DNA of 64,000 bases. Origin: Abditibacterium sp. (GTDB lineage Bacteria > Armatimonadota > Abditibacteriia > Abditibacteriales > Abditibacteriaceae). Positions 1 through 62,708 of the stretch are shown piece after piece. The notes under the pieces were generated by a model that did no database searches, had not been told where the DNA came from, and worked only from the letters and a program-made list of their open reading frames with translations. Where the stretch lies: NCBI GenBank assembly GCA_965199495.1, contig CBDASK010000003.1:3232001-3296000 (forward strand). Reading direction: 5' to 3'. Both the position numbers and the translations under genes were made by a program. Every line of letters starts with the position of its first letter. The first letter of the stretch is position 1.

Positions 1-368
1 AAGCCGATGCGCTGCTTAACAGCCACGTCGCGTGGGCCGCGCCCGAAAATCTCGACGCTGCCGCCGTTGGGCTTGATGAGGCCCAACAAAAGTTTGAGCG
101 TCGTGGTTTTGCCGGAGCCGTTGGGGCCGACCAAACCGAAAATTTCGCCGCGTTTCACGTCAATTGTTAAGTCATTGAGCGCGACTTTGCCCGCGCGCGA
201 AAACGGCGCGCGATAGGTTTTGTTCAGATCGTGCGTCTGAATAATCACGTCGCCCGCGCCTTCGAGTGGCGCTTTGGTCGCGGTCGCGCCCTTGGGCGTG
301 GCGACGGCGACGGGTGGGGAATCGACGGGTTCGATGGCGATTTCACCCTGAGAATTGGATGGAGGCAT
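1..368 (-). CDS. ABC transporter ATP-binding protein (C-terminal part runs off the window edge)
   Basis: Minus-strand frame from ATG at 368 reads ...GEIFGLVGPNGSGKTTTLKLLLGLIKP (Walker A). Absent from the ORF track because it has no stop in the window. Confidence 0.85.
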   Translation of the reverse strand, partial: MPPSNSQGEIAIEPVDSPPVAVATPKGATATKAPLEGAGDVIIQTHDLNKTYRAPFSRAGKVALNDLTIDVKRGEIFGLVGPNGSGKTTTLKLLLGLIKPNGGSVEIFGRGPRDVAVKQRIG

Positions 369-538
369 GGAATTAAAATCGTTCTGCACCAAATGATGGA
401 CAGAAACTAAATGGGCGCGAAGTTGTCACGCTTCGCAAAATGGGAATAAAAGCACTTTACATTTTAACGAGATAACTCTATGCACGCTTTGTTGATAATC
501 GGGTTTCGTTAAGAAGGCAAGCGAAAATAAGACTTCTT

Positions 539-1447
539 TTACTTCAGTTTCAGCGATGCGATCCAAGGTGCCGGGAAATGCCGCATATAAAAGTCGCGAA
601 GTTTCGCTTTACGCGCACTTTCGTCGTAGCCAATATTCCATCCTAATTTGCGCTCGCAGGCCGGGCAAAAATCGAGCGGCGCACCGTCGGCGTCGGCGAG
701 CGAGTTGGAGCCATTCATCGCGCAACGATAGAAAACGCAGTGCGAAATGCCGAACATATGCCCGGTTTCGTGACACAAAACCTGACAGGCGCGCCGCAGT
801 TGCGCCTTCGCGGGCGCGCCTTTGGTGCGATAGCGCGCCAGCGAATAAACGCCGACGCGCTGGCGATAGGAGGCCAAACCGAAAACGAAACTCAATTTGC
901 CGCTCCACAAATCGCGATTGGTCACCGCCAGATAAGCCGTGGCATCGTCGGGTAAACGCGGTTGGAGCCGCGCCAAAATCGCGTCGGCATCGAATTGTCG
1001 CTGGAATTTGGCGCTGCCCGCACGCGAGGACACACTTAATTTATTCAACGATAGCGGTTTTTCCAATCGCGTAGGCAACATGAAAAACGCGCCGCAAAAT
1101 TGGCGCAACTCTTCCAGTTGCCGCGTTTCTTGCGCGTCGAAATCGCCCAGCGGCAACAGCACCAAAGTGCGCCGTTGCGGCGTCGGGCGCATCGGAAATT
1201 CGCGTCTATAATTTCCAAACGTCTGCACTGGTTCGGCGAAGCTCGCATACCAACCGGGCGCGTTGTCGCGCGTCAGATGCAGCCACGCCGTGTTGGGATC
1301 GCGATTCCATTCGCTCTGGCGGGCGCGCTCGGCCAGAAAATTATCGGTCGTCGCGCCGCCCCAATGTGGATTGATTGCGCTCCAAGCGAGGTAGCCCACG
1401 ATTATGGCGGCGGTGGCTGCAAGTTGGAGGCGGCGCGGTCTGGGCAT
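539..1447 (-). CDS. Archaemetzincin-family (peptidase M54) zinc metalloprotease with N-terminal membrane anchor
   Basis: HETGHMFGISHC (HExxHxxGxxHC), CAMNGSNS Met-turn, FCPAC. Confidence 0.85.
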   Translation of the reverse strand: MPRPRRLQLAATAAIIVGYLAWSAINPHWGGATTDNFLAERARQSEWNRDPNTAWLHLTRDNAPGWYASFAEPVQTFGNYRREFPMRPTPQRRTLVLLPLGDFDAQETRQLEELRQFCGAFFMLPTRLEKPLSLNKLSVSSRAGSAKFQRQFDADAILARLQPRLPDDATAYLAVTNRDLWSGKLSFVFGLASYRQRVGVYSLARYRTKGAPAKAQLRRACQVLCHETGHMFGISHCVFYRCAMNGSNSLADADGAPLDFCPACERKLGWNIGYDESARKAKLRDFYMRHFPAPWIASLKLK

Positions 1448-1478
1448 AATTTGAAACTAAATTCCAAATATAAAAAAT

Positions 1479-1534
1479 CCGATTAAGAGCCTATCGGTGT
1501 GCCGCCGGCGGCACACCGATAGGCTCTTAATCGG
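1479..1534. repeat. Perfect 56-bp palindrome with no spacer
   Basis: CCGATTAAGAGCCTATCGGTGTGCCGCC|GGCGGCACACCGATAGGCTCTTAATCGG; contains the stop codon of the GT4 gene. Confidence 0.95.
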
Positions 1535-2717
1535 TAAATTCGCGATACAACGCTTCAATTTGCGCGGCATGATCGGCGATGTGAAATTTTTCGATAACCG
1601 TCGCGCGCCCGTTGGCGCTCAAATGCTGGCGCAATTCGCTGTCGCGAAAAACGCGCGTCATCGCTTCGGCGAGTTCATCGGGCGCGTGAGGTTTGACCAA
1701 CAATCCGTCTTGGCCGTGCGTCACAATTTCGAGCGGCCCATTTTTGTTGACGGCAATCACCGGGATTTCCAAGGCCATCGCTTCTATCAAGACGCGGCCA
1801 AACGGTTCGTCGCCCGCCGGATGAACCAGGCAATCGAGCGCCGACATCGCGTCAACGGCATCGCTCTGGCGCGGAATGAAGTTGAAATGTTCGATCAAAT
1901 CGTGCTTTTTGATTAGGTCGCGCAATTCTTCGATGTAATCTTGATGTTCGCCGAAAAGGTCGCCGCCAATCGAGACGAAACGCACATTTTTCATGCCCTG
2001 TTGCTGCACCATCTTGGCGGCGGCTTCGATGAAATCGGCGTGGTTTTTCCACGGCACCATTTGGCCGACGATGCCGAAAATAAAAGTATCATCGGGCACG
2101 CCGAGCGTTTCGCGCAAACGCGACGGCATATTGGGGCGCCATTGTTCGGGGTCGAGGCCGTTATAAATAATGCTGATTTTCTCGCGCGGCACGCCATCTT
2201 TTTCGAGTTGCGAGGCCACGCAACCCGAAATCGCGATAACGCGCGTCGCTTTGGAGGCGAGTTGGGGCGCGATTTTGTCCAGCGAAATCAGATCGCGGCA
2301 GTGCCACAGCGCCGGGCGATTGGTGCGCTCGGCAGCCACGCCGCCGACCAAGTGCGCCGTCGTCGAATTGGAATGGATGAGCGCGGCGCCGCTTTGGTCT
2401 ACCAAACGGCAGATAAAAGGCGCGGTCTGCAAAACGTGGAGCAGCGACGCCATGCCATCAATAATGCCGCGTGGCCGCTGCAAACGACGGAGCGGCGCGA
2501 ACGAAACGTTCCAGTGTTCCTCGCGCAATTCGGTGGCAAAAGGCCCATCGCCCGGCAACGCGATAAACGGCTCAAAGGGCGCATCAATCTGGCGCAGGCC
2601 CTTGAGCAGAGCGCGCAACGAAACTTCGGCCCCACTGATCTGCGCCGAGTGATTGAGGTAAAGCACCGTCTTTTTTTCAGTGGGCGAAGCGGGCGTGGAA
2701 TCCGTGGAATTGCTCAT
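1527..2717 (-). CDS. Glycosyltransferase family 4 (GT-B)
   Basis: GAEVSL N-terminal motif, IHSNS, EPFGRVLIEAMA (ExxGxxxxEA). Confidence 0.9.
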   Translation of the reverse strand: MSNSTDSTPASPTEKKTVLYLNHSAQISGAEVSLRALLKGLRQIDAPFEPFIALPGDGPFATELREEHWNVSFAPLRRLQRPRGIIDGMASLLHVLQTAPFICRLVDQSGAALIHSNSTTAHLVGGVAAERTNRPALWHCRDLISLDKIAPQLASKATRVIAISGCVASQLEKDGVPREKISIIYNGLDPEQWRPNMPSRLRETLGVPDDTFIFGIVGQMVPWKNHADFIEAAAKMVQQQGMKNVRFVSIGGDLFGEHQDYIEELRDLIKKHDLIEHFNFIPRQSDAVDAMSALDCLVHPAGDEPFGRVLIEAMALEIPVIAVNKNGPLEIVTHGQDGLLVKPHAPDELAEAMTRVFRDSELRQHLSANGRATVIEKFHIADHAAQIEALYREFTD

Positions 2718-2770
2718 AATTATAACTTTTTGAAACTACTTCAAATTATACCTTGCCGTCGCGAAAATTT

Positions 2771-3616
2771 CTAATTAATTTCGCCATTCAACCAGTTTTG
2801 CGTGATCTCGAAAACTTGTTTTTCCCATTCCAATCCGTAAAACGAATGATTGGCGCCCGCCACGATTTCGACAACGGGCGGGCGCGCCGAGTGTCGCGCA
2901 TACCAATCTTTTGCTTCGGGCGCGATGGGGTCGGCGTCGCCATAAATTTGCAAAATCGGGCCGCGATATTTTTTCCAATCGCTCAGCGATTGCGCGCGAA
3001 AGCCCGGCGGCAATTGGCCGGGTTCGCGCGATTCGACGTTTTTATTGGCCGCGCCGCCGCCGCCTTTCATCGCTTTGCCGACGGCGGCGGTATCCACCTG
3101 GCCGCGCGCGATTTTGAGATAAGTTCGCGGATCCAAAAGTTTGCGCGCGTATTTGCCCAAGTTCGCCGCGCGCTTTTTTTGCTGCCCCGATTGTTCCGGC
3201 AGCGCCGCGAAAATCGGCGCGCTCCACAACGCGATGCCGTCCCACTTTTCGCCCGCCGCCGCGACCGCGATTTCGCAGCCCGAACACAAACCAACCGCGA
3301 TGAATTTTTCGCTTTCGCTTTGTTTTCGCAACAGTTCCAACGCGCAAAACGTATCGTCGCGCATCGTCGCCAGCGTGGCGAGTTCGGTATCGCCTTCGCT
3401 GTCGCCGCGCCCGGCGAAATCGAAGCGCAACGAATCGAAACCCAACGCGCCAAAGTGGCGCGCGGCGCGCGTCAACATTTGGTGCGGCCCAGTGCGATAA
3501 CCGCTCCATCCATGCAAAAACAATAGAGCGCCACGCGGTGTCTGCTCCGTTTGGTGCAACACGCCGACGAGCGTTTCGTCGCGCGCGTTGGGGAAAGTCA
3601 GGGGGAGTTCGGGCAT
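2771..3616 (-). CDS. Alpha/beta hydrolase resembling exosortase A system-associated hydrolase 1
   Basis: LRFDFAGRGDSEG, GLCSG nucleophile elbow, GANHSF. Start moved to ATG 3616 (MPELPL); the longer ORF reads through a palindrome. Confidence 0.8.
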   Translation of the reverse strand: MPELPLTFPNARDETLVGVLHQTEQTPRGALLFLHGWSGYRTGPHQMLTRAARHFGALGFDSLRFDFAGRGDSEGDTELATLATMRDDTFCALELLRKQSESEKFIAVGLCSGCEIAVAAAGEKWDGIALWSAPIFAALPEQSGQQKKRAANLGKYARKLLDPRTYLKIARGQVDTAAVGKAMKGGGGAANKNVESREPGQLPPGFRAQSLSDWKKYRGPILQIYGDADPIAPEAKDWYARHSARPPVVEIVAGANHSFYGLEWEKQVFEITQNWLNGEIN

Positions 3617-3627
3617 AAATTTAGAAC

Positions 3628-3744
3628 GTAGATGCGATATAAAATCGCAGCCAAGGAAGTCGTCGGCCTTCGCCGACGGTTTGAACTTTCTTCTGTCGGC
3701 GAAGGCCGACGACTTCCTTGGCTGCGATTTTATATCGCATCTAC
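3628..3744. repeat. REPIN-like inverted repeat, family A copy 1 (50-bp arms, 17-nt spacer, GTAG end)
   Basis: GTAGATGCGATATAAAATCGCAGCCAAGGAAGTCGTCGGCCTTCGCCGAC followed by its exact reverse complement. Confidence 0.9.
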
Positions 3745-4470
3745 AAATTCGAGCGATTCTAAAAGCGGCACGGGCGGCGTGTAATCGAGCAAATTCCAGA
3801 ATGCGGGCATCACAATCGCGCGCGTTTGCGCGCCGATTTGGTCGGCGAAATTTTGCAGCGGCGGCGCCATCGCATTGCGCGGTCCGACGTTCCACGCTTG
3901 CGCTTCGCCCTCAAATTGAACGGCGTCGCGTAAATCGAGCGCGTTCAATTCGTCGCGTAAATTCTCGCCCAACGCCCAGCCGTCCAAATCTCCGGCGGGT
4001 AACGCGGCGCCGCCGCCCGCCATCGAAACGCGCATTTTCTGGCGCATATTGAGTTGGCTCAGCATCGCGCGCCCGGTTAATATCGGTTCGATGAGCAATA
4101 AGCGCGACGCGCGTTCGCGTTCGAGATAAGCCAGCGAGGCGCCTAATCGCACGCCCAACAATCCGATTTGTGCATTGGGCGCGCGCCCCGCGACAACAGC
4201 CACGGCGGCGGCGATGTCGGCGCGCCACGCGGTCAAAGTCGCGTCGGCGAAATCGCCGTGGCTGTCCCCAGTGCCGCGATACGAGAAAAATAGCGATGCC
4301 TCGCCGCGCGCTTGCAACGCCAACGCGATTTCGGTCAACGTGCGATGCGCCGATTTTTCTTCTTCGGCAAACGGCGGGCAAATCACCCAGACGCGTTCGG
4401 CGTTTTCGGCGCCGCGCCAAACTCCGAAAAGTTGAAGTTCGCCAGACGGGAAAAAGAGCGGTTCGAGCAT
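3730..4470 (-). CDS. Alpha/beta hydrolase-like protein resembling exosortase A system-associated hydrolase 2
   Basis: CPPFAEEEK, YRGTGDSHGDF, GVRLGA. Confidence 0.8.
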   Translation of the reverse strand: MLEPLFFPSGELQLFGVWRGAENAERVWVICPPFAEEEKSAHRTLTEIALALQARGEASLFFSYRGTGDSHGDFADATLTAWRADIAAAVAVVAGRAPNAQIGLLGVRLGASLAYLERERASRLLLIEPILTGRAMLSQLNMRQKMRVSMAGGGAALPAGDLDGWALGENLRDELNALDLRDAVQFEGEAQAWNVGPRNAMAPPLQNFADQIGAQTRAIVMPAFWNLLDYTPPVPLLESLEFVDAI

Positions 4471-4490
4471 AAACTCAATTTAATGCTTCA

Positions 4491-4581: not shown

Positions 4582-4586
4582 CAAAA

Positions 4587-10155: not shown

Positions 10156-12462
10156 TCAAACAAATTTATCCGGCGTCAACGGCAAATCGCGCAACCGTTT
10201 GCCCGTCGCGTTGAAAACCGCGTTGGCGATGGCGGCAGCCACGCCGGTGATGCCGATTTCGCCGATGCCGCGACAACCCAGACTGTTGATATGTGGGTCG
10301 GGCACGTTGATGAACTCGACCTGAATTTCGGGCACATCGGCGTTGACCGCGACGTGATAATCGGCCAGATTGCGAATGATTGGGCGGCCAGTTGGCGGAT
10401 CGTAAAGCGTCTCTTCGCTCAACGCCATGCCGATGCCGAAACCGACGCCGCCCAAAATTTGGCTGCGCGCGGTGCGTGGATTCAAGACGCGCCCGCAATC
10501 AATCACGCTGACCCAATCCATCAGTCGAATCGTACCCAACTCTTCGTCCACGCGCAACTTGCAAAATTGCGCGCCAAACGAATGAAACGAATATTTTTCC
10601 ATGTCCGCGTCGGTTTCGGAATGCGGCGCCAAAATCGCGCACGGCGGCTTCTGCTTTTGCTTCAAACCGGCGCTGGCTTTGGCCGTCGCCATCGTTTCGG
10701 CGCGGCAACAGGCTTCGATATACGGTTTTCTGCTGCGCTTGATAATTTGCGAAAGCGCCTCGCCTTTGCTGCCGTCCGACTTCAAAACCGCCAGCCCGTC
10801 GCGAAAATGAATCTCCTCCAATTTGCGCCCGTGCAATGGCGAACGGCGGTCGGCAATCGCGAGTTTGGCGACTTGCGCCATCGCCATTTCGCACGCTTCA
10901 ACGACGGCGGGCGCCACGCTCGCCGTCAGTTGCGAGCCGCCCGCGACCGGCGCGAACGGCAAATCGGAATCGCCCAGTTCAAAGACGACTTTATAAAGCG
11001 GAAATCCCAGCGTATCGGCGGCGACCTGCCGGAAAACTGTGTAGGCGCCGGTTCCGATGTCGCTGCCCGCGCTGCCAGCCACGGCGCGACCATCGGCATA
11101 AATGCGGCAACGCGCACTCGCCGCCGTGCGATAACCCGGATAAGTCGCCGTCGCCATGCCATAACCGATGAGATAACGGCCTTCGCTCTGTGCCCGTGGC
11201 TCTATTTTGCGCTCGTTCCAGCCGATTAAATCGGCGCCGCGCGCGTAGCATTGTTTGAGTTGTTTGCTCGACCACGGCAAACCGTCTTTCGGGTTTTTGT
11301 CGGCGTAATTTTTCAAGCGAAATTCAATCGGGTCGAGCTTGAGTTCGTGCGCCATTTCGTCCATCGCGCATTCCATCGCGAAAACGCCCGGCGCCTCGCC
11401 CGGCGCGCGCATGAAAATCGGCGGCGCGATATTGTTGCGCGCGGTGACGTTCGCCATCGCGAAGTTGGGCACGTCATAAAGCAAGCGCGAGGCGAACGGG
11501 CTTGGCTCGAAAAACGCCGGTTGATATTCGTGCGTTTGCGTGGTGTTGTGGAACGACATCACCGCCAGATCACCATCGGTGCGCGCGCCCAAATCCAAAT
11601 CCATCGCGCACTCGCCGCGATGGCCGACGCCCGCGAACATTTGCTGGCGCATCAACGCCAATTTTACCGGGCGCCCAATCTGGCGCGCGGCCCAGACGGC
11701 GGCGATGTCGTGCGGCCAACTCGCGGCGCCTTTGCAGCCGAAACCGCCGCCGATGAAATGCGAAATCGCGCGCACGTTTTTGTCGGGCACCTCGAAAACC
11801 TGCGACATCAAAATCTGTGGCCCCTTCACGCCTTGGCTCGACAGATAAATCGTCAAATTGTCACCTTCCCAATCGGCAATAATCGCGTGCGGCTCGATGG
11901 GATTGTGATGTTCGGTGGGCGTGTGATAACTCGCCGAAACTTTAATAGGCGCGTTTGCGCCCGCCAAAACCGGTTCGCCGCGCTGATATTGCGCGTCTTC
12001 CATCCCGAAAAATTTTTCGGGTTTCGTCGTCGCGAGCGCATCCTTCAAACCAACGGCGGGTTTTTCGGTCTCGATTTCGGCAGTCACCAAAGTCGCGGCA
12101 TAACGCGCGCGTTCGTAGGTGTCGGCCACCACAATCGCGATGGCTTGGCCGTTATAGGCGATGTCGGGGCCGGAAAACGGCAGGCGAAACTCGCCGGGAA
12201 TCGTGCCCGCTTTCCCCAGTTCGGCGGGGTTAATCGCGCCGTATTTGGGTTGGTCGAAATGCGAAAACACATCAATCACGCCCGTCGCGGCGCGCGCGGC
12301 ATTCAAATCCAAACTTTTGATCGTGCCGCGCGCGACCGGCGAAGTCACCAAAACGGCGTGCGCCATGTTGGGGAGGGTGAATTCGGCGGAATATTTAGCG
12401 GCGCCGGTCACTTTCAATCGCGCGTCCTGCCGCGTGGCGCTCTGGCCGATGATGGGTTGCAT
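10156..12462 (-). CDS. Xanthine dehydrogenase family molybdopterin-binding subunit (YagR/PaoC-like)
   Basis: DARLKVTGAAKY, IGGGFGCKG, FMRAPGEAPG, DIGTGAYT, GIGEIGITG. Confidence 0.92.
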   Translation of the reverse strand: MQPIIGQSATRQDARLKVTGAAKYSAEFTLPNMAHAVLVTSPVARGTIKSLDLNAARAATGVIDVFSHFDQPKYGAINPAELGKAGTIPGEFRLPFSGPDIAYNGQAIAIVVADTYERARYAATLVTAEIETEKPAVGLKDALATTKPEKFFGMEDAQYQRGEPVLAGANAPIKVSASYHTPTEHHNPIEPHAIIADWEGDNLTIYLSSQGVKGPQILMSQVFEVPDKNVRAISHFIGGGFGCKGAASWPHDIAAVWAARQIGRPVKLALMRQQMFAGVGHRGECAMDLDLGARTDGDLAVMSFHNTTQTHEYQPAFFEPSPFASRLLYDVPNFAMANVTARNNIAPPIFMRAPGEAPGVFAMECAMDEMAHELKLDPIEFRLKNYADKNPKDGLPWSSKQLKQCYARGADLIGWNERKIEPRAQSEGRYLIGYGMATATYPGYRTAASARCRIYADGRAVAGSAGSDIGTGAYTVFRQVAADTLGFPLYKVVFELGDSDLPFAPVAGGSQLTASVAPAVVEACEMAMAQVAKLAIADRRSPLHGRKLEEIHFRDGLAVLKSDGSKGEALSQIIKRSRKPYIEACCRAETMATAKASAGLKQKQKPPCAILAPHSETDADMEKYSFHSFGAQFCKLRVDEELGTIRLMDWVSVIDCGRVLNPRTARSQILGGVGFGIGMALSEETLYDPPTGRPIIRNLADYHVAVNADVPEIQVEFINVPDPHINSLGCRGIGEIGITGVAAAIANAVFNATGKRLRDLPLTPDKFV

Positions 12463-14589: not shown

Positions 14590-15852
14590 ATGAAAATCGC
14601 AATTATTGGGGGCGGCCCCATTGGAATGGAAGCGCTGCTTTATGGCACGCTGGCGGGCGCCGATGTTCAATTGTTCGAGCGCGGGCGCGTCGGCGAGAAC
14701 GTGCGCGCATGGAGCCACGTCGGCTTGTTCACAGAGTGGAAACGCGACCGTTCGCCATTGGGCGAGCGCGTTTTGAGCGAGCGCGGCGATGCTCTGCCCG
14801 ACGGCGAGAGTTCGCCCAATGGCGAGCAACTCGCCAATTATCTGATGCGCCTGGCGGCGTTACCGCAACTGCGCAACCGCGTTTTGGCGCAAACCGAAGT
14901 GCGCTCGATTACGCGCGAAGCGATGCTCAAACACGATTTGTGGGGCGATCCGCGCCGCGCTTTCGCGCCGTTTCGATTGATGACGCATGGCATCGGCGGC
15001 GAAAAAGTGCGCCATTTCGACGCCGTGATTGACGCGACCGGCGTTTATGGCACGCCCAACTGGGTCGGCAACGGCGGCGCGCCCTGTCCGGGCGAGTTGG
15101 GTTTGCAACGCTACATTGACTATCAAATTCCCGACGTGAAAGGCGCCGACGAAAGCCGCTTTGGGAGCAAGCGCACCCTCGTCGTGGGAACGGGCCATTC
15201 GGCGGCGACGACGCTGCTGGCCCTCGCCGATTTGCTCGGCCAACATGCAGCCACGCGCCTGACGTGGGTCGTGCGGCGCGGCGCCGCTAAAGACGGCTCG
15301 CTTTATTACATTGACCCGGCGGATATTTCGAGCGGGCGCCGCCAACTGGGCGAGCGCGCCAACGAACTGGCGCGTAGTGGCAACGTGGATTTACGCTTGA
15401 ATACGGTCGTCGAAGGAATCGAGCGCCGCGCTCACGTTTTTCACGTCAAGCTCTCCGATGGCACGACGGTGGAATGTCATAATTTGGTCGCGGGCGTCGG
15501 TTATCGCCCCGATCCGAAATTGTGGCAGGAATTACAAATTTCGCAGCATCCGGCCAGCGGCGGGCCGGGCCAATTAGCCGAAGCGATTATGACCGCCAAC
15601 AAAGCGGCGGGCGTCGGGCTTTCGACCGGTTACGCCGAAAAATCGGGCGAAGTCTCCAAACCCGAAGCCGGTGACGCGCACGATGCGCTGGAATTATTGC
15701 GGTTGGACGAGCCGAATTTTTATGTTATCGGCATCAAATCGTATGGCCGCGACGCCGGATTCCTCATGCAAAACGGCTTTCGTCAGGTGCGCGATGTCTA
15801 TCGGTTATTATGCGATGACCGCAGGTTGGATTTATACGAAGGCGTTTTGTAA
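14590..15852 (+). CDS. FAD/NAD(P)-dependent oxidoreductase (flavoprotein monooxygenase-like)
   Basis: IIGGGPIG, VIDATG, LVVGTGHSA, FYVIGIKSYGR. Confidence 0.85.
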   Translation: MKIAIIGGGPIGMEALLYGTLAGADVQLFERGRVGENVRAWSHVGLFTEWKRDRSPLGERVLSERGDALPDGESSPNGEQLANYLMRLAALPQLRNRVLAQTEVRSITREAMLKHDLWGDPRRAFAPFRLMTHGIGGEKVRHFDAVIDATGVYGTPNWVGNGGAPCPGELGLQRYIDYQIPDVKGADESRFGSKRTLVVGTGHSAATTLLALADLLGQHAATRLTWVVRRGAAKDGSLYYIDPADISSGRRQLGERANELARSGNVDLRLNTVVEGIERRAHVFHVKLSDGTTVECHNLVAGVGYRPDPKLWQELQISQHPASGGPGQLAEAIMTANKAAGVGLSTGYAEKSGEVSKPEAGDAHDALELLRLDEPNFYVIGIKSYGRDAGFLMQNGFRQVRDVYRLLCDDRRLDLYEGVL

Positions 15853-17676: not shown

Positions 17677-18544
17677 ATTCGCCCGCAATTTTCCAAATTC
17701 CATGATTCAACAACCGGCGCGGCGCAAGCGCAAAGATTTCGTCGAAGCCACGCTCGCCGGATTGCTCGAAGCGACCGACCAATCATTGTACGCCGAAGAG
17801 CTATCGGCGCGGCGTGGCTGGTTGCAAGGACTCGATCCGCGCGTCAACATCGTTGGTTTATTTGCGCTGATTATAGCGGCGGCGATGTCGCACAGTCTGG
17901 CCGTTATCGGCGCGATTTTCTCCGTTGCCGTCGCGCTCGCGTTGCTTTCGCGCGTGCCACTGCGCACCTTAGCCACGCGCGAATGGCTGCCGGTTTTCGT
18001 CTTCACCGGCTGCGTCGCCTTGCCCGCGATTTTCCTGACGCCCGGCCCGGCCATCGCACGCGTGCCCTTGCTGAATTGGGAAATCACCGCGACCGGAACG
18101 CTTAGCGCGCTTTATTTAATATCGCGCGTCGAAACGGCGGCGACTTTGGCGCTGTTGATGGTGCTTTGCACGCCGTGGACGCAGGTGCTCAAGGCGCTGC
18201 GCAGTTTGGGCGTGCCGGTCGTTGTCGTGGTGATGTTGGGTATGACTCATCGCTATATTTTTCTGTTGTTGCAAAGCGCGCACGATTTATTTCAGGCGCG
18301 CCGCAGCCGCATCGTGGCGCCGCTCGATGGCGCCGCGCGGCGGCGTTTGGCCACGACGAGCGCCGGAGTTTTGCTGGGCAAAAGTCTACATTTGAGCCAC
18401 GAAGTTTTTCTGGCAATGCAGGCGCGCGGCTTTCGCGGCGAGGTTTATACGCTCGATGAATTCCAGATGCGCCCGCGCGACTGGCTGGCGCTCGCGGCGT
18501 TTTTGCTGTTGGCTGGTTTGGCGCTCTGGTTTGGGCGGCGGTGA
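17669..18544 (+). CDS. cbiQ: ECF transporter T component (NikQ/CbiQ); start 17669 or 17702
   Basis: LQGLDPRV, MTHRYIFLL, AMQARGFRG. Confidence 0.88.
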   Translation: MNKFARNFPNSMIQQPARRKRKDFVEATLAGLLEATDQSLYAEELSARRGWLQGLDPRVNIVGLFALIIAAAMSHSLAVIGAIFSVAVALALLSRVPLRTLATREWLPVFVFTGCVALPAIFLTPGPAIARVPLLNWEITATGTLSALYLISRVETAATLALLMVLCTPWTQVLKALRSLGVPVVVVVMLGMTHRYIFLLLQSAHDLFQARRSRIVAPLDGAARRRLATTSAGVLLGKSLHLSHEVFLAMQARGFRGEVYTLDEFQMRPRDWLALAAFLLLAGLALWFGRR

Positions 18545-18670: not shown

Positions 18671-19489
18671 ATGTCCCAACCGATTTTCGAGTTGCGCAAC
18701 GCGACCTACAATTACAATAACGTGCCTGCGCTTCGCGAAGTCAATTTGCAAATTCAAGCTGGCCAGCGCATCGCGGTCTTGGGCGCCAACGGTTCGGGCA
18801 AATCCACGCTGTTGCGTTTGCTCGACGCGCTCTATTTCGTCAACGCGGGCCAGTTGCTTTTCGATGGTGCGCCCGTCACCGAAGAATCGCTGCAATCCGA
18901 TGAATTCGCCTTTGATTTTCGTCGGCGCGTCGGATTGGTTTTTCAAAATCCCGACGTTCAACTATTTAATCCGACGGTTTTCGACGAGGTCGCGTTTGGC
19001 CCGTTGCAATTGCGTTGGGAGAAAAATTTAATTCGAGAAAAAGTCGCGCAGACGATGGAGCAGATGGAAATCGCGCATCTCAAAGATCGTTCGCCGCATC
19101 GGTTGTCGGGCGGCGAAAAGCAGCGCGTGGCTCTGGCCTCGGTGCTGATTCTCGACCCCGAAGTTTTATTATTGGATGAACCAACCGCCGCGCTCGACCC
19201 GAAAAGCCAGAGCCAAATGGTAGATTTTTTGAGCGACCGTAGCCACGCCAAAACCATAATAACGGCGACGCACGATTTGGACATCATCGAAGAGATCGCC
19301 GATATTTGCCATGTTTTTCGGCAGGGACAACTCATCGCCAGCGCGCCGCCAGCCGCAATTTTGTCCGACGAAGCGTTGTTGCGCAGCACCAATCTCATCC
19401 GCTCGCATCGCCACCATCATGCAGCCACGGCGGCGCACTCGCATTCGCATGGGCGGCACGCGCACGAACATGGCGATTCTACATCGTAA
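18671..19489 (+). CDS. cbiO: ECF transporter ATPase (NikO/CbiO) with His-rich C-terminal tail
   Basis: GANGSGKST, FQNPD, LSGGEKQR, LLLDEP; tail SHRHHHAATAAHSHSHGRHAHEHG. Confidence 0.9.
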   Translation: MSQPIFELRNATYNYNNVPALREVNLQIQAGQRIAVLGANGSGKSTLLRLLDALYFVNAGQLLFDGAPVTEESLQSDEFAFDFRRRVGLVFQNPDVQLFNPTVFDEVAFGPLQLRWEKNLIREKVAQTMEQMEIAHLKDRSPHRLSGGEKQRVALASVLILDPEVLLLDEPTAALDPKSQSQMVDFLSDRSHAKTIITATHDLDIIEEIADICHVFRQGQLIASAPPAAILSDEALLRSTNLIRSHRHHHAATAAHSHSHGRHAHEHGDSTS

Positions 19490-24515: not shown

Positions 24516-28919
<4,404 letters not shown>

Positions 28920-29831: not shown

Positions 29832-30899
29832 TTACGCAGAAGCCAAGTTGATGGTAGGTCTTTTGAGTTGTTGAACGAGGTAGTCTCGCAGCAAGCCGTG
29901 CTTGAGTTGGTAGACGTTTGTGAGATTGCGGTGAGCAATGGCGGTCAATCGTGTCCAGACCAAAAGCGCGCAGTGGACGTGGTTACGCTGAATGCGAGCT
30001 TTGCGGCATTGGCAGCTCTCGATGCCTGTGAGTTGCTTGATTTCTCGGTGATACTGCTCAATCTTCCAGCGCACGGCACACACCTTTCGTGTCTCTTGCG
30101 TGGAATCCTGAGACAAGTCGTTGGTCACGACGTAGTCCGTGCGGCTGGAAGAAACCGGCACCCGGAACAGTTGCACCTTGAACTCTTTAGCAAACCCATA
30201 AACCTTGATCTTTTTGCCCGTTTGTAACTCTGCTTCGCTCCACTCCAACTCACTCACCGCGCGGTAAGGTCGCTCACCAAAGCTATCATCGACTTTGCGG
30301 TTGCTTTTGAGCGGACAGTAGAACAGCTTCTTGTCGGCACCGGCACCGGCACCGGCACCGGCACTGTCCTCCTGTTGGGTGTTTTGGTGCCAGTTCTCGA
30401 TTGTCCACATCAGGTGTTTGGTGGCATACCACGAGTCCATCAGCACGGTTTGAAACGGAATTGCCCGCGCCTTGATGCTTTGCAGCATCTCTTCGACATG
30501 GTCGAGCTTGCTTTTGCCGTCGCCATCGGGGTCGAAGATGCGGTAGTCAATGACCCAAAACTGCTCGGTTTCGGGATGGACATAGAGGCACGAGACCAGA
30601 CCGATACCGCGCACGATACCATGAGCGTTGCCGCTCCATTGTCTGCGCGTGGTCTCGATAGAGGGGCCAAAGCTCTTGTCCAACACCGTGTCGTCGAACA
30701 CGATAAACCCACTCGCGCACGGCTGGTAAACTTCGCGCACGTTCTCCCACAACAAACGCGGGGTGAGCTTCTCCCCGCGCAGGTAGCGGTTGAGACGGTC
30801 ATGGGACAGCTCTTCCACATGAGCGGCCATGTTAGTCAAGGTGTAATTGACCGGGCTGCTCAGAAGATATTGGCAGTAATCCAGTTTGCTCAAACTCAT
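29832..30899 (-). CDS. IS701-family DDE transposase
   Basis: IVFDDTVLDK, VLMDSWYA, RWKIEQYHREIKQ; stop codon lies inside the IR. Confidence 0.92.
   Translation of the reverse strand: MSLSKLDYCQYLLSSPVNYTLTNMAAHVEELSHDRLNRYLRGEKLTPRLLWENVREVYQPCASGFIVFDDTVLDKSFGPSIETTRRQWSGNAHGIVRGIGLVSCLYVHPETEQFWVIDYRIFDPDGDGKSKLDHVEEMLQSIKARAIPFQTVLMDSWYATKHLMWTIENWHQNTQQEDSAGAGAGAGADKKLFYCPLKSNRKVDDSFGERPYRAVSELEWSEAELQTGKKIKVYGFAKEFKVQLFRVPVSSSRTDYVVTNDLSQDSTQETRKVCAVRWKIEQYHREIKQLTGIESCQCRKARIQRNHVHCALLVWTRLTAIAHRNLTNVYQLKHGLLRDYLVQQLKRPTINLASA
30335..30364. repeat. (CGGCAC)x5 tandem repeat inside the transposase gene, encoding an Ala-Gly tract
   Basis: CGGCACCGGCACCGGCACCGGCACCGGCAC. Confidence 0.9.
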
Positions 30900-45229: not shown

Positions 45230-46246
45230 ATGAATTTAACTCCCGATTCCGCGCTTTCTCACGCGCCCGATGACGCGTCCAAAGGCAACGCTCGCACCCT
45301 CGCGAATCCGGCCAAATGGAAAAGTATTGGCGCTTTCGATTCCGACGAGGGCGAAGTCGTCTGGGGCGAAATTACCGGTTCGGGCGGCGGCGTTTATCAC
45401 ACGCGCGTCGAAATTGACGAACCGGCGTTTCGCTGCACCTGCCCCTCGCGCAAATTGCCCTGCAAACATGGGCTTGGGCTTTTGCTGTTGCGCGCCCAAG
45501 ACCCCGGCGCCTTCAAGGCGCCGCCGCCCGAATGGGCGTTGGACGAAGTCGCCGAAGTTGACGTTCAAGGTCTCGAATTGCCCGCCGCGTGGCAAAATGT
45601 TTTGGGCGGCGAAACCCAGAAATTTTACTTCAAAGAATTGGAAAAATTCGTTTCGCAGGAGCGCCACAAACACACGGTTTACCCGCCCATCGGCCAGGAG
45701 TTCGCCGCCCTCGATGCGGTCGCGCCCAAAAACGTGAAAGTTTTCATTCTGGGCCAAGACCCTTATCACGGGCCGGGGCAGGCGCACGGCATGGCGTTTT
45801 CGGTGCGGCCCGGCGTGGCTCCTCCTCCGTCGCTGGGCAATATCTTCCGCGAACTGCGCGACGATTTGGCGATTCCCCTGCCGCACAACGGCTATCTGAT
45901 GGGCTGGGCGCGGCAGGGCGTTTTGCTGCTCAACGCGGTTTTGACCGTCAGGCGCAGCGAGGCCAATTCGCACAAAAGCCAGGGTTGGGAAAAGTTCACC
46001 GACGCCGTTATTAAAGCGGTCAGCGACGGCGATGATCCGGTTGTTTTCGTGTTGTGGGGCAACTACGCGCAGAAGAAAGAAAAGCTGATTGACGCCGACA
46101 AACACACGATCATCAAATCGGCGCATCCCTCGCCGCTATCGGCGCATAACGGATTTTTCGGCTCCAAACCATTTTCCAAAATTAACGATGCGTTGGAAAA
46201 AGAAGGCCGCAAACCGATTGATTGGTCGAATTTCGAGGAAGAATAA
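45230..46246 (+). CDS. ung: Uracil-DNA glycosylase (family 1) with N-terminal SWIM zinc-finger domain
   Basis: CTCPSRKLPCKH (SWIM), then ILGQDPYHG, GVLLLNAVLTV and HPSPLSA in one frame. Confidence 0.9.
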   Translation: MNLTPDSALSHAPDDASKGNARTLANPAKWKSIGAFDSDEGEVVWGEITGSGGGVYHTRVEIDEPAFRCTCPSRKLPCKHGLGLLLLRAQDPGAFKAPPPEWALDEVAEVDVQGLELPAAWQNVLGGETQKFYFKELEKFVSQERHKHTVYPPIGQEFAALDAVAPKNVKVFILGQDPYHGPGQAHGMAFSVRPGVAPPPSLGNIFRELRDDLAIPLPHNGYLMGWARQGVLLLNAVLTVRRSEANSHKSQGWEKFTDAVIKAVSDGDDPVVFVLWGNYAQKKEKLIDADKHTIIKSAHPSPLSAHNGFFGSKPFSKINDALEKEGRKPIDWSNFEEE

Positions 46247-46287: not shown

Positions 46288-47354
46288 TGTCAAGTCCCAT
46301 GAGGTTGTAAACGGTAAGCGAGCAATTCGGTTGGGTCTTTGCGAAAGAGTTCGGGCTGTTTTTGGTGCCAGTTGCAGACGGCCTGATAAGGCGTGATGCG
46401 TCCGATCTGGCGGTGGCTGCGGCTGAAGTTGTAGAAGACAAACCAACGATGAAGATCGTCCTTCATCTCCTGTGCGTTGTCGTAGATCTGGCGTTTGGTC
46501 GTGCCTTCTTTGATTAGACCGTTGGCCCGTTCCACCATTCCATTGGTTTTGGGCGTGTAAGGCCGTGTTTGGCGGTGTTCGATTGCGTTGTCATGGCAGA
46601 TCTGGGTGAAGAGCGAGAGCTTTTTGGCGCGGTCGTAGCGATTGCGGAAAGTATTGAGGGTGAACTCGCGCCCGTTGTCGGTGAGTATCTTCTCGATTGT
46701 AAACGGGAAGAACTGCAGACAGCGCCGCAGAAAGTGCGTGGCTGCGTCGCCGTTGCGGGTGGGGTAAACCGCCAGATAGAGCAGACGAGTGGCGCGGTCG
46801 ATGGCCACATAGCAATAATACTTCTGTCCGCCCAGTTTGGGCAAGTAGAAGCAGTCGATGTGCAAAAAGCCGGGGCCGTATTCTTTGAATGTGCCCCGGT
46901 GTCCCGTGGGCTGTTGCTCCTTTTTGGGTAAGCGGCTGCAGCCGTTGCGGCGCAGCAGACGGTGCAAACTCGAACGGCGCAGATGCGGCATGAGCGGCGC
47001 CATGGCGTCGAAGAGGTCATCGAGCGAGAGTTCGCCCGTTTGCCGCAGCCACAGCAGTAGAGATTCTTCCTCTTCTTGCAGAGCGTAATGAATGTTGTCC
47101 GGGCGGCACGAGCGGTCAAAGCGATCTTCTCGATGCGTCCACTTGTGAACGGTGGCGAGGGAGACGCCCAGATTGTGGGCTAATGTGCGCATCGTTTGTG
47201 TGCTATTGCGGATAAGTTGGCGTTGCCGGGGGCAAGTCGCTGCGTTAGAATGAAGTTGCATTCGGTGGGGTTCCTTTGCTTGGTCGCTAAGAAAGCCTAC
47301 CGGATGTCACTCGCTTTTACCTCCTTTCTGTTCAGTTTGTGGTGGGACTCGACA
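46288..47354. mobile_element. IS481-family insertion sequence (1067 bp)
   Basis: TGT...ACA ends; IRs TGTCAAGTCCCA / TGGGACTCGACA match at 11 of 12; flanks CGTAAT / CGTAAG. Confidence 0.9.
46290..47261 (-). CDS. IS481-family transposase
   Basis: LHSNAAT start, PGFLHID, ILTDNGREF, PYTPKTNGMVERANG. Confidence 0.93.
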   Translation of the reverse strand: MQLHSNAATCPRQRQLIRNSTQTMRTLAHNLGVSLATVHKWTHREDRFDRSCRPDNIHYALQEEEESLLLWLRQTGELSLDDLFDAMAPLMPHLRRSSLHRLLRRNGCSRLPKKEQQPTGHRGTFKEYGPGFLHIDCFYLPKLGGQKYYCYVAIDRATRLLYLAVYPTRNGDAATHFLRRCLQFFPFTIEKILTDNGREFTLNTFRNRYDRAKKLSLFTQICHDNAIEHRQTRPYTPKTNGMVERANGLIKEGTTKRQIYDNAQEMKDDLHRWFVFYNFSRSHRQIGRITPYQAVCNWHQKQPELFRKDPTELLAYRLQPHGT

Positions 47355-58216: not shown

Positions 58217-58296
58217 AAATTTTGGATGTAGATTTTGCGCGTAAAGAACGACGAACGAGAACATTTTATGTAGGAGTTAAGGCGTTGCGCTCGCTC

Positions 58297-58430
58297 TGTC
58301 ATTTCGAGCGAAGCCGAGAAATCTTTCGGCCCCGCGCCAGCGGAGAAAATGCGAGAGCCTGAACGTGAAGACCTCTTCAACTTGCGCTGCCGCGCGGGCA
58401 CAAGATTTCTCGGCTTCGCTCGAAATGACA
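58297..58430. repeat. Inverted repeat, TGTCATTTCGAGCGAAG family (29-bp arms), inside the ABC operon
   Basis: TGTCATTTCGAGCGAAGCCGAGAAATCTT ... AAGATTTCTCGGCTTCGCTCGAAATGACA. Confidence 0.88.
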
Positions 58431-58485
58431 ATCGCGACCAGCTGCGTAATTCCTACTATCAATCACAAATTTGAAAAATCACACC

Positions 58486-59496
58486 ATGAAATCCCCCAGT
58501 TCCGCGCCCGATGCGGGCGGCGCGCCGCTCGCGCAAGACGTTTTATTCGCCGATAAAAAACGCCGCAGTTTGGTGCCCAAAATTTTCACGTCGGGCGGCG
58601 AGGGCACCGACCGCAACGCGACCATCGCGTTCTGGTTGTTCGTCGCACCCGCTTTGATTGGCCTACTGATTTTCGTGTTTTTGCCGATTTTGTGGGGCTT
58701 CGTTTTGTCGCTTTCCTACGCGCAAAACACCATCACGCCGATTCGTTTCGTCGGCTTCGCCAACTACATTGACCTGCTGACCGACGAAGCATTTTTGCGT
58801 TCGATGAGCAGCATTTTGGTGTTCGCGCTTTTCATCGTGCCGCTCACTTTCGCAGTTTCGCTGTGGCTGGCGCTTTTAGTCCATAACGCCGGATTCGGGC
58901 GCGCGTTTTTCCGCACCGCGTTCTTCATTCCGACGGCGGTTTCCTATGTTGTCGCCTCGCTGATCTGGAAAATTAGCCTGTTCAACTCGCTGCAATCGGG
59001 CGTGGCCAACCAACTTTTGGGTTTGGCGGGCGCTTCTCCAATTACGTGGATTGGCACGATTTCGCCGCCGTGGTTTTGGGTCGTTTTGGTCAGCGTGCGC
59101 CTGTGGCTGCAAGTCGGCTTTTACATGATCATTTTTCTGGCGGCATTGCAGGAAATTCCGCCCTCGATTTACGAAGCCGCCGCCGTGGATAACGTGCGTC
59201 CCGGTTGGCAGACTTTTCGCCATATCACGTTGCCACAACTGCGCGCGACGACGGTTTCGGTTTTGATTCTCAATCTCATCGCGGCGTTTCAGGCGTTCGA
59301 CGAGTTTTATAATATTCTCGGCACGGCGGGCGCCAACATCGCTCTGGCGCGCACGCCGTTGATTTATTTATATTCGCTGGCTTTGACCGACCAAGATTTC
59401 GGGCGCGGCACGGCGGGCGCCTTTATTTTGACGTTCGTAATTTTCGCGATTACGATTATCCAAGGCCGCATCATCGGCTTCGGCGATCGCGACTAA
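58486..59496 (+). CDS. Carbohydrate ABC transporter permease (MalF-like)
   Basis: FVGFANY, ALQEIPPSIYEAAAVD, FRHITLPQL. Confidence 0.9.
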   Translation: MKSPSSAPDAGGAPLAQDVLFADKKRRSLVPKIFTSGGEGTDRNATIAFWLFVAPALIGLLIFVFLPILWGFVLSLSYAQNTITPIRFVGFANYIDLLTDEAFLRSMSSILVFALFIVPLTFAVSLWLALLVHNAGFGRAFFRTAFFIPTAVSYVVASLIWKISLFNSLQSGVANQLLGLAGASPITWIGTISPPWFWVVLVSVRLWLQVGFYMIIFLAALQEIPPSIYEAAAVDNVRPGWQTFRHITLPQLRATTVSVLILNLIAAFQAFDEFYNILGTAGANIALARTPLIYLYSLALTDQDFGRGTAGAFILTFVIFAITIIQGRIIGFGDRD

Positions 59497-60152
59497 AGTT
59501 CGACCATGCGCGTTTCGCCCAATTCGTTGGCTTGCCACACGCGATTCGTCGTCACATCGAGCGCCGACAGCCAGCCACCGCCGTGGCAAAACGTATCAAT
59601 GCAGACGGCGTGGCTGATGTCGAGCGGCAGACCATTTTTCTGCGAAGTGTGCCCACAAATCACGCGTTTGCCCGAAAAATGCGGCGCCTGATTATCCACG
59701 CGCTCCCACAGCAAAACCTGTTGGTGCTGATCGGACAGTTCTAACTCGGCATCAACGGCGCCATGAACGAAAATTTCGTTTTCCGTTTCATAATACTCGG
59801 CCAAGTTATCGAGAAATTCCCAGTGCGCGGCGGGAACTTGAGTCAGGTCGCCATAAGAATGAATCGTCTCCAAACCGCCGACGTTTCCGTGGAACCACGA
59901 GATAAACCAGTTGCGATCTTCGCGCGCGTTTTCCATCCATAAATCGTGATTGCCACGCAGAAATATCGTGTTCGGGCGCGCCGATAGTTCGATTAATCGT
60001 TCCAAAACGCCGCGCGAATTGGGGCCGCGATCAACGTAATCGCCCAGAAAAATCAGCGTGTCGGCGGGCTGCAAATCCACGAATTCGAGTAGGGTATCAA
60101 GTGCGGTCAGGCAACCGTGAATGTCGCCGATGGCGAGAGTGCGAGGCGTCAT
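59493..60152 (-). CDS. Metallophosphoesterase (PPP-family Ser/Thr phosphatase-like)
   Basis: IGDIHG, LGDYVDRG, RGNHD, CGHT. Confidence 0.92.
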   Translation of the reverse strand: MTPRTLAIGDIHGCLTALDTLLEFVDLQPADTLIFLGDYVDRGPNSRGVLERLIELSARPNTIFLRGNHDLWMENAREDRNWFISWFHGNVGGLETIHSYGDLTQVPAAHWEFLDNLAEYYETENEIFVHGAVDAELELSDQHQQVLLWERVDNQAPHFSGKRVICGHTSQKNGLPLDISHAVCIDTFCHGGGWLSALDVTTNRVWQANELGETRMVEL

Positions 60153-61120
60153 TGTTTGCTCCAGATGCGCGTATTCAAATCGAGTTCTGCGATGATGCCC
60201 GTCGCCGCTTGCAATTGGTGGAGCGTCGTTTCGACGCCCTCGAAAGTCAGCGGCGTATTTAGGCCGGGCGGCTCAAACCAGTTCTCTTTTTTAGCAATCA
60301 TCAAATACAATGAACCGCCGATAAAAGCGGCACTTACGTTACCATTAAAATGTTGTTTTAATTTTAATAAACGACGCATGAGCACCGAAGATAAAATGTA
60401 GCGCGCTTCGGTTTGGTCGTTGGAATAAGTCACGAAAGCGCGCTCGAATTCGGGGTCTTCGAGTTGAACTAAAGCGCCGCGCCCGCCCAGTTTTCCACCC
60501 AACGACTGAATGCCACGACCAAAACTTCCCAGACTTCCAGAAATACCTTCGGGCACGACGTAAGTGAAACCAGTGAAGTTTTTATTGAAATCGGCGATGA
60601 GAAATAACCCGTAAAAAATCGTGACGTAATCGGTCGTGGTGCGGCCCTCCGAATCGGTGCGATCTTGCCTGTCTTCGGCGTGAACTTCGCTCATGCGCAC
60701 GCGCGTGGCTCCAATTTGGCCCGCGATTAAATCTTCGCAATTGTATCGGTCGGGCCGCTGAAAAAGATTGGCGGTGTTAAATTCGGCCTCGCTCAAACCC
60801 GATTGTGCGGAGTAACTTAAATCGCCGAATAATGTGACGAGTCGCGGCATCACCATTATTTTAAAACCAACGCCATAACTCTTTTTAGCGTTGCTCGCGA
60901 TAAACGCGTAAATAGCACCGGCGATAAGTGGCGGCCCAATCATAAAAATTTTGAGAATTCCGCCCATGCTGTAAACGAAAACCAAACCGGTAAGCCCCAA
61001 AATCACACATATAATTGCGGTCGTCGCACAGGTGCGCGCCTGTTGCGTGCGCTCGGCTTCGAGCGCACTTAAAGTCGGCGCGAGTTGGGCGCGCAATTCG
61101 TTTAAATCGGAAGAGTTCAT
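60149..61120 (-). CDS. DUF3137-like membrane protein
   Basis: Two N-terminal TM segments; LEDPEFERAFVTYSNDQTEARYIL; adjacent to lemA. Confidence 0.78.
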   Translation of the reverse strand: MNSSDLNELRAQLAPTLSALEAERTQQARTCATTAIICVILGLTGLVFVYSMGGILKIFMIGPPLIAGAIYAFIASNAKKSYGVGFKIMVMPRLVTLFGDLSYSAQSGLSEAEFNTANLFQRPDRYNCEDLIAGQIGATRVRMSEVHAEDRQDRTDSEGRTTTDYVTIFYGLFLIADFNKNFTGFTYVVPEGISGSLGSFGRGIQSLGGKLGGRGALVQLEDPEFERAFVTYSNDQTEARYILSSVLMRRLLKLKQHFNGNVSAAFIGGSLYLMIAKKENWFEPPGLNTPLTFEGVETTLHQLQAATGIIAELDLNTRIWSKQ

Positions 61121-61148
61121 AATTTTAATTTAACCGCAAATTTGTGCA

Positions 61149-61679
61149 TTACAATTTTATCTGTGGCGCCTCACGCGCCCCATTTTCGGCTTCGTAAAAG
61201 TCGCGGCGCACGAAGCCAAACGACGCCGCCAGCAGACTGGCGGGAAACGTTTCGACGGCATTGTTGTAATCGGCGACGGTCGCGTTAAAGGCGCGGCGCG
61301 AAGCCGAAATTTGTTCTTCGATTTCGGTGAGAGAGCGCTGCAAATGCAGAAAATTCGCCGAGGCTTTCAAATCGGGATAGGCCTCGGCGCGCGCCATGAT
61401 TTGCCCGATGAGTTGCGCGCTGGCGCCCTCGTTTTGAGCGCGATTGCCTTGCTCACGCAACTGCGTCAGTGCTTCCAATGTGTCGCGTTCGTGCGTCATA
61501 TAACCTTTGACAGTCGCGACTAAATTGGGAATTAAGTCAAAACGTTTTTGCAGATTGGCATCGAGCGAGGCGAACGCATTTTGCGCGGCGTTGCGACGCG
61601 TTATCAAGCCGTTATAAAGGCTGACGACGATGATCAATAATAGAACGATCAGGCCGCAAAAAACGGAAAGGGGCGACAT
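61149..61679 (-). CDS. lemA: LemA family protein
   Basis: YNGLI, KRFDLIPNLVATVKGY, AEAYPDLKA, YNNAVETFP. Confidence 0.92.
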   Translation of the reverse strand: MSPLSVFCGLIVLLLIIVVSLYNGLITRRNAAQNAFASLDANLQKRFDLIPNLVATVKGYMTHERDTLEALTQLREQGNRAQNEGASAQLIGQIMARAEAYPDLKASANFLHLQRSLTEIEEQISASRRAFNATVADYNNAVETFPASLLAASFGFVRRDFYEAENGAREAPQIKL

Positions 61680-61724
61680 AATGAAAGCGTGCAACTGGGC
61701 TTCATAAGTTTAGTTCAAGAGCGA

Positions 61725-62708
61725 CTATGGCTCGACGCGCACGCGGCGTCCGCTTTGATGAGATGCAATGGCGGCGTGCGCCAGTTGCAACGCGCGCCAT
61801 CCGGCGCTGGCATGAACCGGTGGCTCTTGGCCCGCGCGAAATGCCGTCAACACTTCGTCCATGTGCGCATCGAAAGTTTGCTCGAACGAACGATGAATAT
61901 CGTCGAAATATCCGGCTTGCCAGACGCGCGCGGTTTCGTCGCTCGCACGCTGAAACTGAAATTCGCGCACGGTATCGTTGACGAGGACGCGGCCCAACGT
62001 GCCGTTAATTTCGAGGCGATGCGTATCGCGATAGGCGTAAGACGAATCGTAGGAGCCGAGCAGATTACCGACGGCCCCGTTCTCGAATTCGAGCGCCAGC
62101 GCCATCGTCGAAAAACCGTGGCCGGTGCGGTCGCTCATCTGCGCCATAATCGAGACAATTGGGCCGCACAACCATTCGAGTTGATCGAAGCCGTGACACT
62201 GCGTTTCGATGAGATTGGCGTGCGGATGGTCTTGATGGCCTTCGCCGCCAAAGCGCCAACTGGCGAAAGTTAAATCGCCCAACTCGCCCGCTTCGATGGC
62301 GCTTTTCGCCATCTGCAGCGGGCGCGCGTAGCGATGATTGAAGTTAATCGCGAAAAACAAATCGCGTTCGCGCGCCGCTTCGAGCAATTGGCGCGCTTGC
62401 TCCAACTCGAAAACCAAAGGCTTCTCGACAAAGAGAGCCACGTCGGCTTCGATGAGTTGCAAAGTCGCCTCGAAATGATGTTGGTTGGGCAAACACACGC
62501 ACACCAAATCGGGATTTTCGGCGTTCAACATCGCTTCGATGGACAGATAAGGCCGCGTTCCAAACTCCGCCGCGCGGGCGTTGGTTCGCTCGGCGTTGCG
62601 TCCGACGATGCCACAAAATTCGACATCTTTGCGACCGGCCAAAATGCGTGCGTGTTGGCGCGCCCAGCCGCCCGTTCCGACGAGCGCGATTTTTAGTTTT
62701 TCATTCAT
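61725..62708 (-). CDS. Gfo/Idh/MocA family oxidoreductase
   Basis: IALVGTGGWA, FVEKPL, NFNHRY. Confidence 0.9.
   Translation of the reverse strand: MNEKLKIALVGTGGWARQHARILAGRKDVEFCGIVGRNAERTNARAAEFGTRPYLSIEAMLNAENPDLVCVCLPNQHHFEATLQLIEADVALFVEKPLVFELEQARQLLEAARERDLFFAINFNHRYARPLQMAKSAIEAGELGDLTFASWRFGGEGHQDHPHANLIETQCHGFDQLEWLCGPIVSIMAQMSDRTGHGFSTMALALEFENGAVGNLLGSYDSSYAYRDTHRLEINGTLGRVLVNDTVREFQFQRASDETARVWQAGYFDDIHRSFEQTFDAHMDEVLTAFRAGQEPPVHASAGWRALQLAHAAIASHQSGRRVRVEP

Follow-up and report, generated by a model that had tools for sequence, protein, structure and literature searches.

A hyper-abundant, strand-neutral word in an Abditibacterium genome, whose same-orientation copies avoid each other

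The 64,000-nucleotide stretch analysed here (the window, C3:3232001-3296000) comes from the genome of an Abditibacterium sp. (G000, 4.81 Mb, 55.7% GC) and is crowded with copies of a non-palindromic word, CGTGGCT, read AGCCACG on the other strand. We find that this word is a real, strong, genome-wide, strand-neutral and lineage-specific DNA-level signal, and that, over about 1 kb, copies in the same orientation are kept apart, which is not the case of copies in opposite orientation. Between positions 21 and 62442 the window holds 66 exact copies on both strands (34 AGCCACG and 32 CGTGGCT on the + strand), compared to 7.56 +/- 2.77 in 100 dinucleotide shuffles, the richest of which had 14. Thirty of them match the 11-mer CG[C/G/A]CGTGGCTG, and 16 the complete 12-mer described below. 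A first-pass annotation of the window had counted about 65 copies by eye (some 33 and 32 per orientation), and 17 of its 17 example coordinates match ours. The excess over chance that it proposed is upheld, but its expectation of about 12 copies, which assumed 58% GC, was too high with regard to the shuffles and to the GC content of the window, 51-58% per 4 kb.

Over the whole genome, 4,553 copies were found (0.96 per kb), with 2,256 and 2,277 in the two orientations on C3, and CGTGGCT tops the lists of 6- to 10-mers under both order-2 and order-3 Markov models. By comparison, the density in 67 unrelated loci of at least 10 kb has a median of 0.09 and a maximum of 0.38 per kb. The complete consensus is CG[C/G/A]CGTGGCTGC[T/A]. 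A single-change scan revealed a strict core of 6-7 bp with graded flanks: one-base changes at positions 5-10 (GTGGCT) brought the counts to 0.1-2.6 times the null, whereas words changed in the flanks were still 2 to 27 fold enriched. The 3′ flank had been recognised in the annotation; the 5′ flank CG[C/G/A], which is the more informative of the two, had been missed. The word is not a palindrome of the type of HIP1, the highly iterated palindrome of cyanobacteria. In the literature searched, with most subscription journals outside its coverage, no description was found of the whole word, as AGCCACG or CGTGGCT, nor of a strand-specific spacing of such a word. As far as could be searched, it is therefore undescribed.

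Ninety percent of the G000 copies are in coding sequences (CDS), and the statement that nearly all copies of the window lie inside genes proved correct (64 of 66 in called CDS). Using our own 3,821 gene calls and a null made by synonymous shuffling within genes, 4,117 coding copies were counted, compared to 741 +/- 22 after shuffling, and 1,198 coding 12-mers compared to 24, a 51-fold excess. Sister words, proposed as controls from the start, were at or below their null (CGTGGCG, 2,152 vs 1,989; CGTGGCC, 1,076 vs 1,478; CGTGGCA, 634 vs 690). GCT makes up 9.8% of alanine codons overall, but 1,800 of 3,044 after C-GTG. This means that the word overrides codon choice, and a codon or peptide bias is ruled out. 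Outside genes, the 11-mer is present 178 times where about 1 was expected. Within genes all six reading frames exceed their null, as the annotation had it, though not evenly, 73% of the coding copies being in only two frames, x-Val-Ala (1,800) and x-Ala-Thr (1,228). Examples are a strong copy with the 5′ CG-V flank, within a gene (1281..1290, − strand), a copy in the commonest frame, with the rare GCT codon (2334..2343, − strand), and one in the second commonest frame, with the word on the antisense strand (15249..15255, + strand). The six frames quoted earlier were all correct (AWL at 1281, (G)VA at 2334, RGW at 17813, AAT at 15249, SH at 19241, EPR at 11195). Amino-acid identity is lower at motif sites (0.55 vs 0.62).

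The local arrangement of the copies is not random, a point on which the earlier picture of strand neutrality can be refined. For pairs in the same orientation and 0-200 bp apart, the pair ratio drops to 0.36 for the 7-mer and 0.10 for the 11-mer, and is back to 1 by 1.2-2 kb; for opposite orientations it stays near 1. Among 584 pairs of 10-mers separated by 50-600 bp, 120 are in the same orientation, compared to 292 +/- 12 in permutations. The result is the same on the two chromosome arms (0.20-0.37 for same, 0.94-1.06 for opposite orientation). The exclusion scales with site strength, is symmetric 5′ and 3′, and decays over ∼0.65-1 kb; same-strand gaps above 6 kb are found at about half of the expectation, meaning that spacing is even. 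No exclusion is seen among control words, and repeated words other than this one are clustered instead. Two trivial causes could be ruled out: avoidance of deletion between direct repeats, because two copies with 8 bases in common exclude each other as strongly as two with 12 (0.20-0.29), and a transcription effect, because sense-sense and antisense-antisense pairs both show it. No 10-11 bp helical phasing of the copies was seen in G000. In a small sample the related genome G011 agrees with the same-orientation exclusion, while in G004, another relative, spacing is not clear-cut because copies are clustered. A toy simulation with a same-strand saturation rule yields the observed pattern, which is not evidence of mechanism.

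The lineage specificity put forward in the annotation was borne out, as the 12-mer is abundant in only 3 of 27 genomes of the family: 1,323 copies in G000, 1,024 in G011 and 420 in G004, compared to 3-33 in the other 24, reversed-pattern controls in family genomes giving 3-21. Sixteen more distant genomes were at background. The three carriers form one clade (100/99) on a MetK tree of 25 family rows, from which two congeners without the gene were left out. Aligned with non-carriers, motif sites face sequence that lacks the motif, and no gap is needed. Between G000 and G011, 23 of 26 motif codons have retained their rare third base, compared to 66 of 154 codons elsewhere; with G004 the effect is weak (21 of 62 vs 108 of 398). 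These alignments show that the word arose in place by point mutation and is kept between close relatives. In G004, the dialect has shifted to GGACGTGGCTG(G/C)TG, even in genes (90 sites), and the strongest form of the dialect word is contained in intergenic inverted doublets, GTAGGACGTGGCTGGTGTC, resembling repetitive extragenic palindromes (REP; L166-L180). In samples of 6-224 kb, different words were detected in 7 of the 24 non-carriers: ATCGAGTACTCGAT in G020, G024 and G042, a variant of GAGTACTC in G022, TTCGACCGTACT in G017, CTGCAAGTACTTGCAG in G014 and CCAAAGTACTTTG in G018, each at ∼1 per kb. None was seen in the other 17. These words are built on AGTACT or GTAC, some being dispersed palindromes and others intergenic hairpins. 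The G017 word is mostly of the latter kind (9% in mapped CDS vs 69% CDS coverage), the G014 word is mostly intergenic, and the G020 word is dispersed, with short-range exclusion. One mechanism common to the various words of the family is possible. Scans of viral sequence yielded neither an inverted pair nor, among 120 loci, any contig rich in the word. A family with close carriers, non-carriers, a dialect and several unrelated words makes a comparative set for finding the reader gene.

Replichores are well defined in G000 (the TA skew changes sign near 2.0 and 4.4 Mb), but the word has no replichore bias (0.506-0.511, z < 1.5), in agreement with the strand neutrality first proposed. The GGGCAGGG word, similar to the FtsK-orienting polar sequences (KOPS), is polarised 204:21 on C3 of the same genome, and a replichore-polarised signal such as KOPS or a primase site is thereby ruled out. 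Density varies along the chromosome: twelve 20-kb intervals, or islands, hold 6-11 copies, compared to a core mean of 19.8 (variance 12.9), and the small contigs C1 and C2 are near background, at 0.32 and 0.19 per kb. In the window, the gene of an IS701 transposase (29832..30899, − strand), recently acquired DNA, has no copy, that of an IS481 transposase (46290..47261, − strand) has one, at 46737, and an intein of ∼500 aa in aconitase A (approximate ends 25688..27203, − strand; aconitase A spans 24516-28919) has three, at 26304, 26414 and 27108. These are the numbers given in the annotation.

To our knowledge, only two proteobacterial families have well-established sequence-specific uptake tags. 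We observe that the word builds up in place, is maintained in closely related species, is lost in DNA that was acquired, and saturates on each strand separately over ∼1 kb. The reading that we favour, with not quite an even chance of being right, is a self tag of the lineage, used in natural transformation, similar to the DNA uptake sequences (DUS) and uptake signal sequences (USS), and spread by molecular drive. Homologous DNA bearing the word would be taken up or recombined more often, and the word would spread by this drive. One copy per transferred piece would be enough, so that a second nearby copy would gain nothing; if a single strand of the incoming DNA survives, saturation would be counted per strand. 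The reader might be one of the pilins encoded in the pilB-pilT-pilC-pilD operon, or a protein that reads single strands in the cytoplasm. We consider transformation the best fit because lineage specificity, dialects and replication neutrality would all follow from it, and because one strand only enters the cytoplasm (PMC7811141). The same-strand-only spacing is simple to measure and would indicate at which point of the transfer the bias operates.

The parallel with DUS and USS goes far: an excess reaching ∼1 per kb, on both strands, of a non-palindromic word with a strict core and graded flanks, without orientation or replichore bias, originating by point mutation, thin in acquired DNA, with dialects among relatives and, in the small controls described below, a short-range spacing. 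USS likewise show no orientation bias (PMC1939737) and arise by point mutation (PMC7811141). The word differs from them by its unrelated sequence and lineage, its location in genes, its few inverted terminator pairs and its longer exclusion range. Competence machinery is present in G000, ComEC, ComEA and the pilus operon being detected by profile search, and DprA, ComF, ComM and RecA by short motif matches only; the main pilus operon, comEC, comEA and dprA are all outside the window. Several results weigh against an uptake tag. About half of DUS and USS are in terminators (bioRxiv 2025.10.24.684340), and this inverted-repeat hallmark is absent from G000, though partly present in the G004 dialect; close inverted pairs number 121 in G000 (∼5% of the copies), mostly within genes. 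Density is higher in coding than in intergenic DNA (1.04 vs 0.52 per kb). Conservation of the word with G004 is no better than that of control words (41 of 172). No Pfam match to a DNA-receptor family of the ComP/ComN type was found in the 6 of 12 listed pilin-like proteins that were scanned. Finally, ComEC is present in all 5 non-carriers tested and ComEA in 26 of 27 genomes, therefore competence genes do not explain who carries the word. The word resembles an uptake sequence and is a candidate member of the class. The original interpretation is supported in part, an uptake-type tag being the leading candidate, and none of the outcomes that the annotation had named as refuting it (no excess once codon usage is controlled, CGTGGCG or CGTGGCC equally enriched, strong replichore polarity) was observed.

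The spacing rule was compared with that of USS in sampled genomes of Pasteurellaceae type, rich in the USS word. The USS9 density in six of them is ∼0.64-0.8 per kb, and two provided a small set of 216 sites. In G133 (116 sites), pairs 50-600 bp apart were depleted in the same orientation (14 vs 30.1 expected) but not in the opposite one (32 vs 30.5), which speaks for the uptake reading. In G077 (100 sites) both were excluded (11 vs 21.8 and 7 vs 21.3), a further point against the uptake reading. Pooling the two gave 25 vs 51.9 for same and 39 vs 51.8 for opposite orientation (P = 0.05 for the difference). Since G133 obeys the same rule and G077 does not, the rule neither separates the word from USS nor can be called general for USS; the idea of a distinguishing feature, suggested by G077, was contradicted by G133. 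Same-strand-stronger exclusion may hold for some USS genomes, and we found no report of it in the literature searched. At 50-300 bp, the pooled counts were 3 vs 23.6 for same-strand and 13 vs 23.5 for opposite pairs.

The main rival, which the annotation had not considered and which we find unlikely but live because the carrier clade lost AddAB, is an unpolarised Chi-like signal. A directional nuclease-helicase replacing AddAB, possibly a Dna2/Bad-like Fe-S enzyme, would read the word on one strand and stop the degradation of DNA ends or of incoming single strands. Both orientations would be needed because breaks are two-ended, and a second same-facing copy would add little, so that the same-orientation exclusion seen on both chromosome arms is accounted for equally well. 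Like Chi, the word is non-palindromic, behaves in an orientation-dependent manner and is enriched in core DNA. All 10 non-carrier congeners have AddA and none of the 3 carriers does, profile searches agreeing; neither RecB nor AddA was found in carriers, which have a single UvrD-family helicase. Conversely, all 3 carriers but none of the 10 non-carrier congeners have a gene for a Dna2/Bad-like protein, which also occurs in G016 and G017; within the genus the distribution of this gene mirrors that of AddAB. The G000 protein (1,421 aa, C3:4111365-4115630, L161) has an N-terminal PD-(D/E)XK domain, four conserved cysteines and a superfamily 1B (SF1B) helicase. Bad is a 5′-3′ single-stranded DNA motor and nuclease of unknown role (PMC7430649), and HIP1 has been proposed to act in a Chi-like manner in transformation (bioRxiv 2024.09.10.611283). 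However, with the same query AddA was not found either in 14 family genomes of other genera, bar one weak match, and most of these lack such a word; moreover, as the three carriers are one clade, the swap of AddAB for the Dna2-like gene counts as a single event. G016 has the Dna2-like gene but no abundant word in 19 kb, and a 39% homologue lies in 24 kb without any. The G011 copy (C5:36235-38371) consists of two pieces, without the N-terminal match. A fold search with the central domain matched no PDB entry at E<=0.001, nor anything resembling RecC or AddB, and a metagenome scan for the gene returned mostly distant helicases. The control G133 shares the spacing rule, and Chi of E. coli is polarised and present once per 5 kb (PMC8022716), while the word is unpolarised and ∼5 times denser; the octamer lists of that source cover other phyla. 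The transformation and Chi-like readings would become one and the same if it were the imported single strand that the reader acts on. It is also possible, though unlikely, that we are dealing with a new class of strand-read recombination tag, where an enzyme other than AddAB or RecBCD, with the Dna2/Bad-like protein as candidate, would recognise the 12-bp word on single-stranded DNA and protect or license self DNA from either direction. Each strand would then carry its own evenly spaced set, and several such words would have arisen independently within one family.

The function of HIP1 is still debated, and a HIP1-like mark by methylation of one strand seems to us quite improbable here. A methylase would mark AGCC(A)C on one strand, for use by repair or recombination, and each strand would therefore need its own set. 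Lone-strand N6-methyladenine sites have a penultimate adenine and none on the opposite strand, which is the case of the AGCCAC core. HIP1 and the alternate highly iterated palindromes are, like the word, hyper-abundant, within genes, in all frames, and replaced by other words elsewhere; HIP variants accompany matching methylases (PMC4390886), and methylated HIP1 raises transformation (bioRxiv 2024.09.10.611283). Unlike them, the word is no palindrome, the words ATCGAGTACTCGAT and CTGCAAGTACTTGCAG of its relatives resembling HIP more closely, and no matching methylase was identified among the candidates examined, which mostly turn over between carriers. Among the type I, IIG and ISP methylases of 14 G004/G011 loci there was no intact orthologue of a G000 enzyme, G004 keeping only remnants of one ISP gene. 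As readers, an MmeI-like methylase (absent from G004 and G011), a CcrM-like one (genus-wide), the D12 class (none found in G004) and MutH (0 of 3 carriers) were rejected. A clade-conserved N4/N6 methylase, split in G000, is left as a candidate. A dispersed site for a nucleoid-organising or translocating protein, the chromosome-organising alternative of the annotation, is very unlikely. Even spacing would suit it, and the periodicity of HIP1 has been read in this way (PMC5861425), but it is hard to see why a site bound as double-stranded DNA should keep away only neighbours in its own orientation, and helical phasing was not seen. The word shares with KOPS and AIMS (architecture imparting sequences) that it is short, non-palindromic and chromosomal, yet it is unpolarised where KOPS, separately present, is polarised, and it is missing from 24 of 27 family genomes, although these would need such a function too. 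Hardly credible at all is a by-product of codon or peptide bias, of a small mobile repeat, or of avoidance of deletion between direct repeats. The concentration of coding copies in two frames and the REP-like doublets of G004 go in this direction; against it stand the synonymous shuffling, the intergenic 11-mers, the absence of indels at sites, and an exclusion indifferent to the bases shared where other repeated words cluster. Spread as an inserted intergenic hairpin of the REP/REPIN (REP doublet) type was rejected, given the proportion of copies in CDS and the ungapped alignment to non-carriers. Y1/RAYT (REP-associated tyrosine) transposases are in 25 of 27 genomes and therefore uninformative.

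Some further observations were made. The clade-conserved N4/N6 methylase mentioned above, 410-415 aa long in most close relatives, is split in two open reading frames in G000 (C3:3446463-3447708, L236). In the window, a DUF1559-type pilin-like gene (63047..63838, + strand), without DNA-receptor family match, is at most a candidate part of the system. CTAG and GTAC are nearly absent genome-wide in G000 (0.04 and 0.11 of expectation, respectively), most islands included, and hardly any GTAC occurs in the sequence sampled from several relatives. On C3, a REP-like hairpin family beginning with GTAGAGAC has 294 copies, and a 168-aa gene (C3:1749731-1750237) has a RAYT-like motif match. A second strongly polarised repeat, containing TCTTGTGAG and present in ∼140 copies, looks like a CRISPR repeat. 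Within 300 bp downstream of the 16S gene (C3:1860978-1862474) there is motif-bearing sequence; 23S probes found nothing nearby, therefore rRNA genes may be unlinked. Finally, positions 45230-46246 of the window encode a uracil-DNA glycosylase, with an N-terminal extension matching a SWIM zinc finger.

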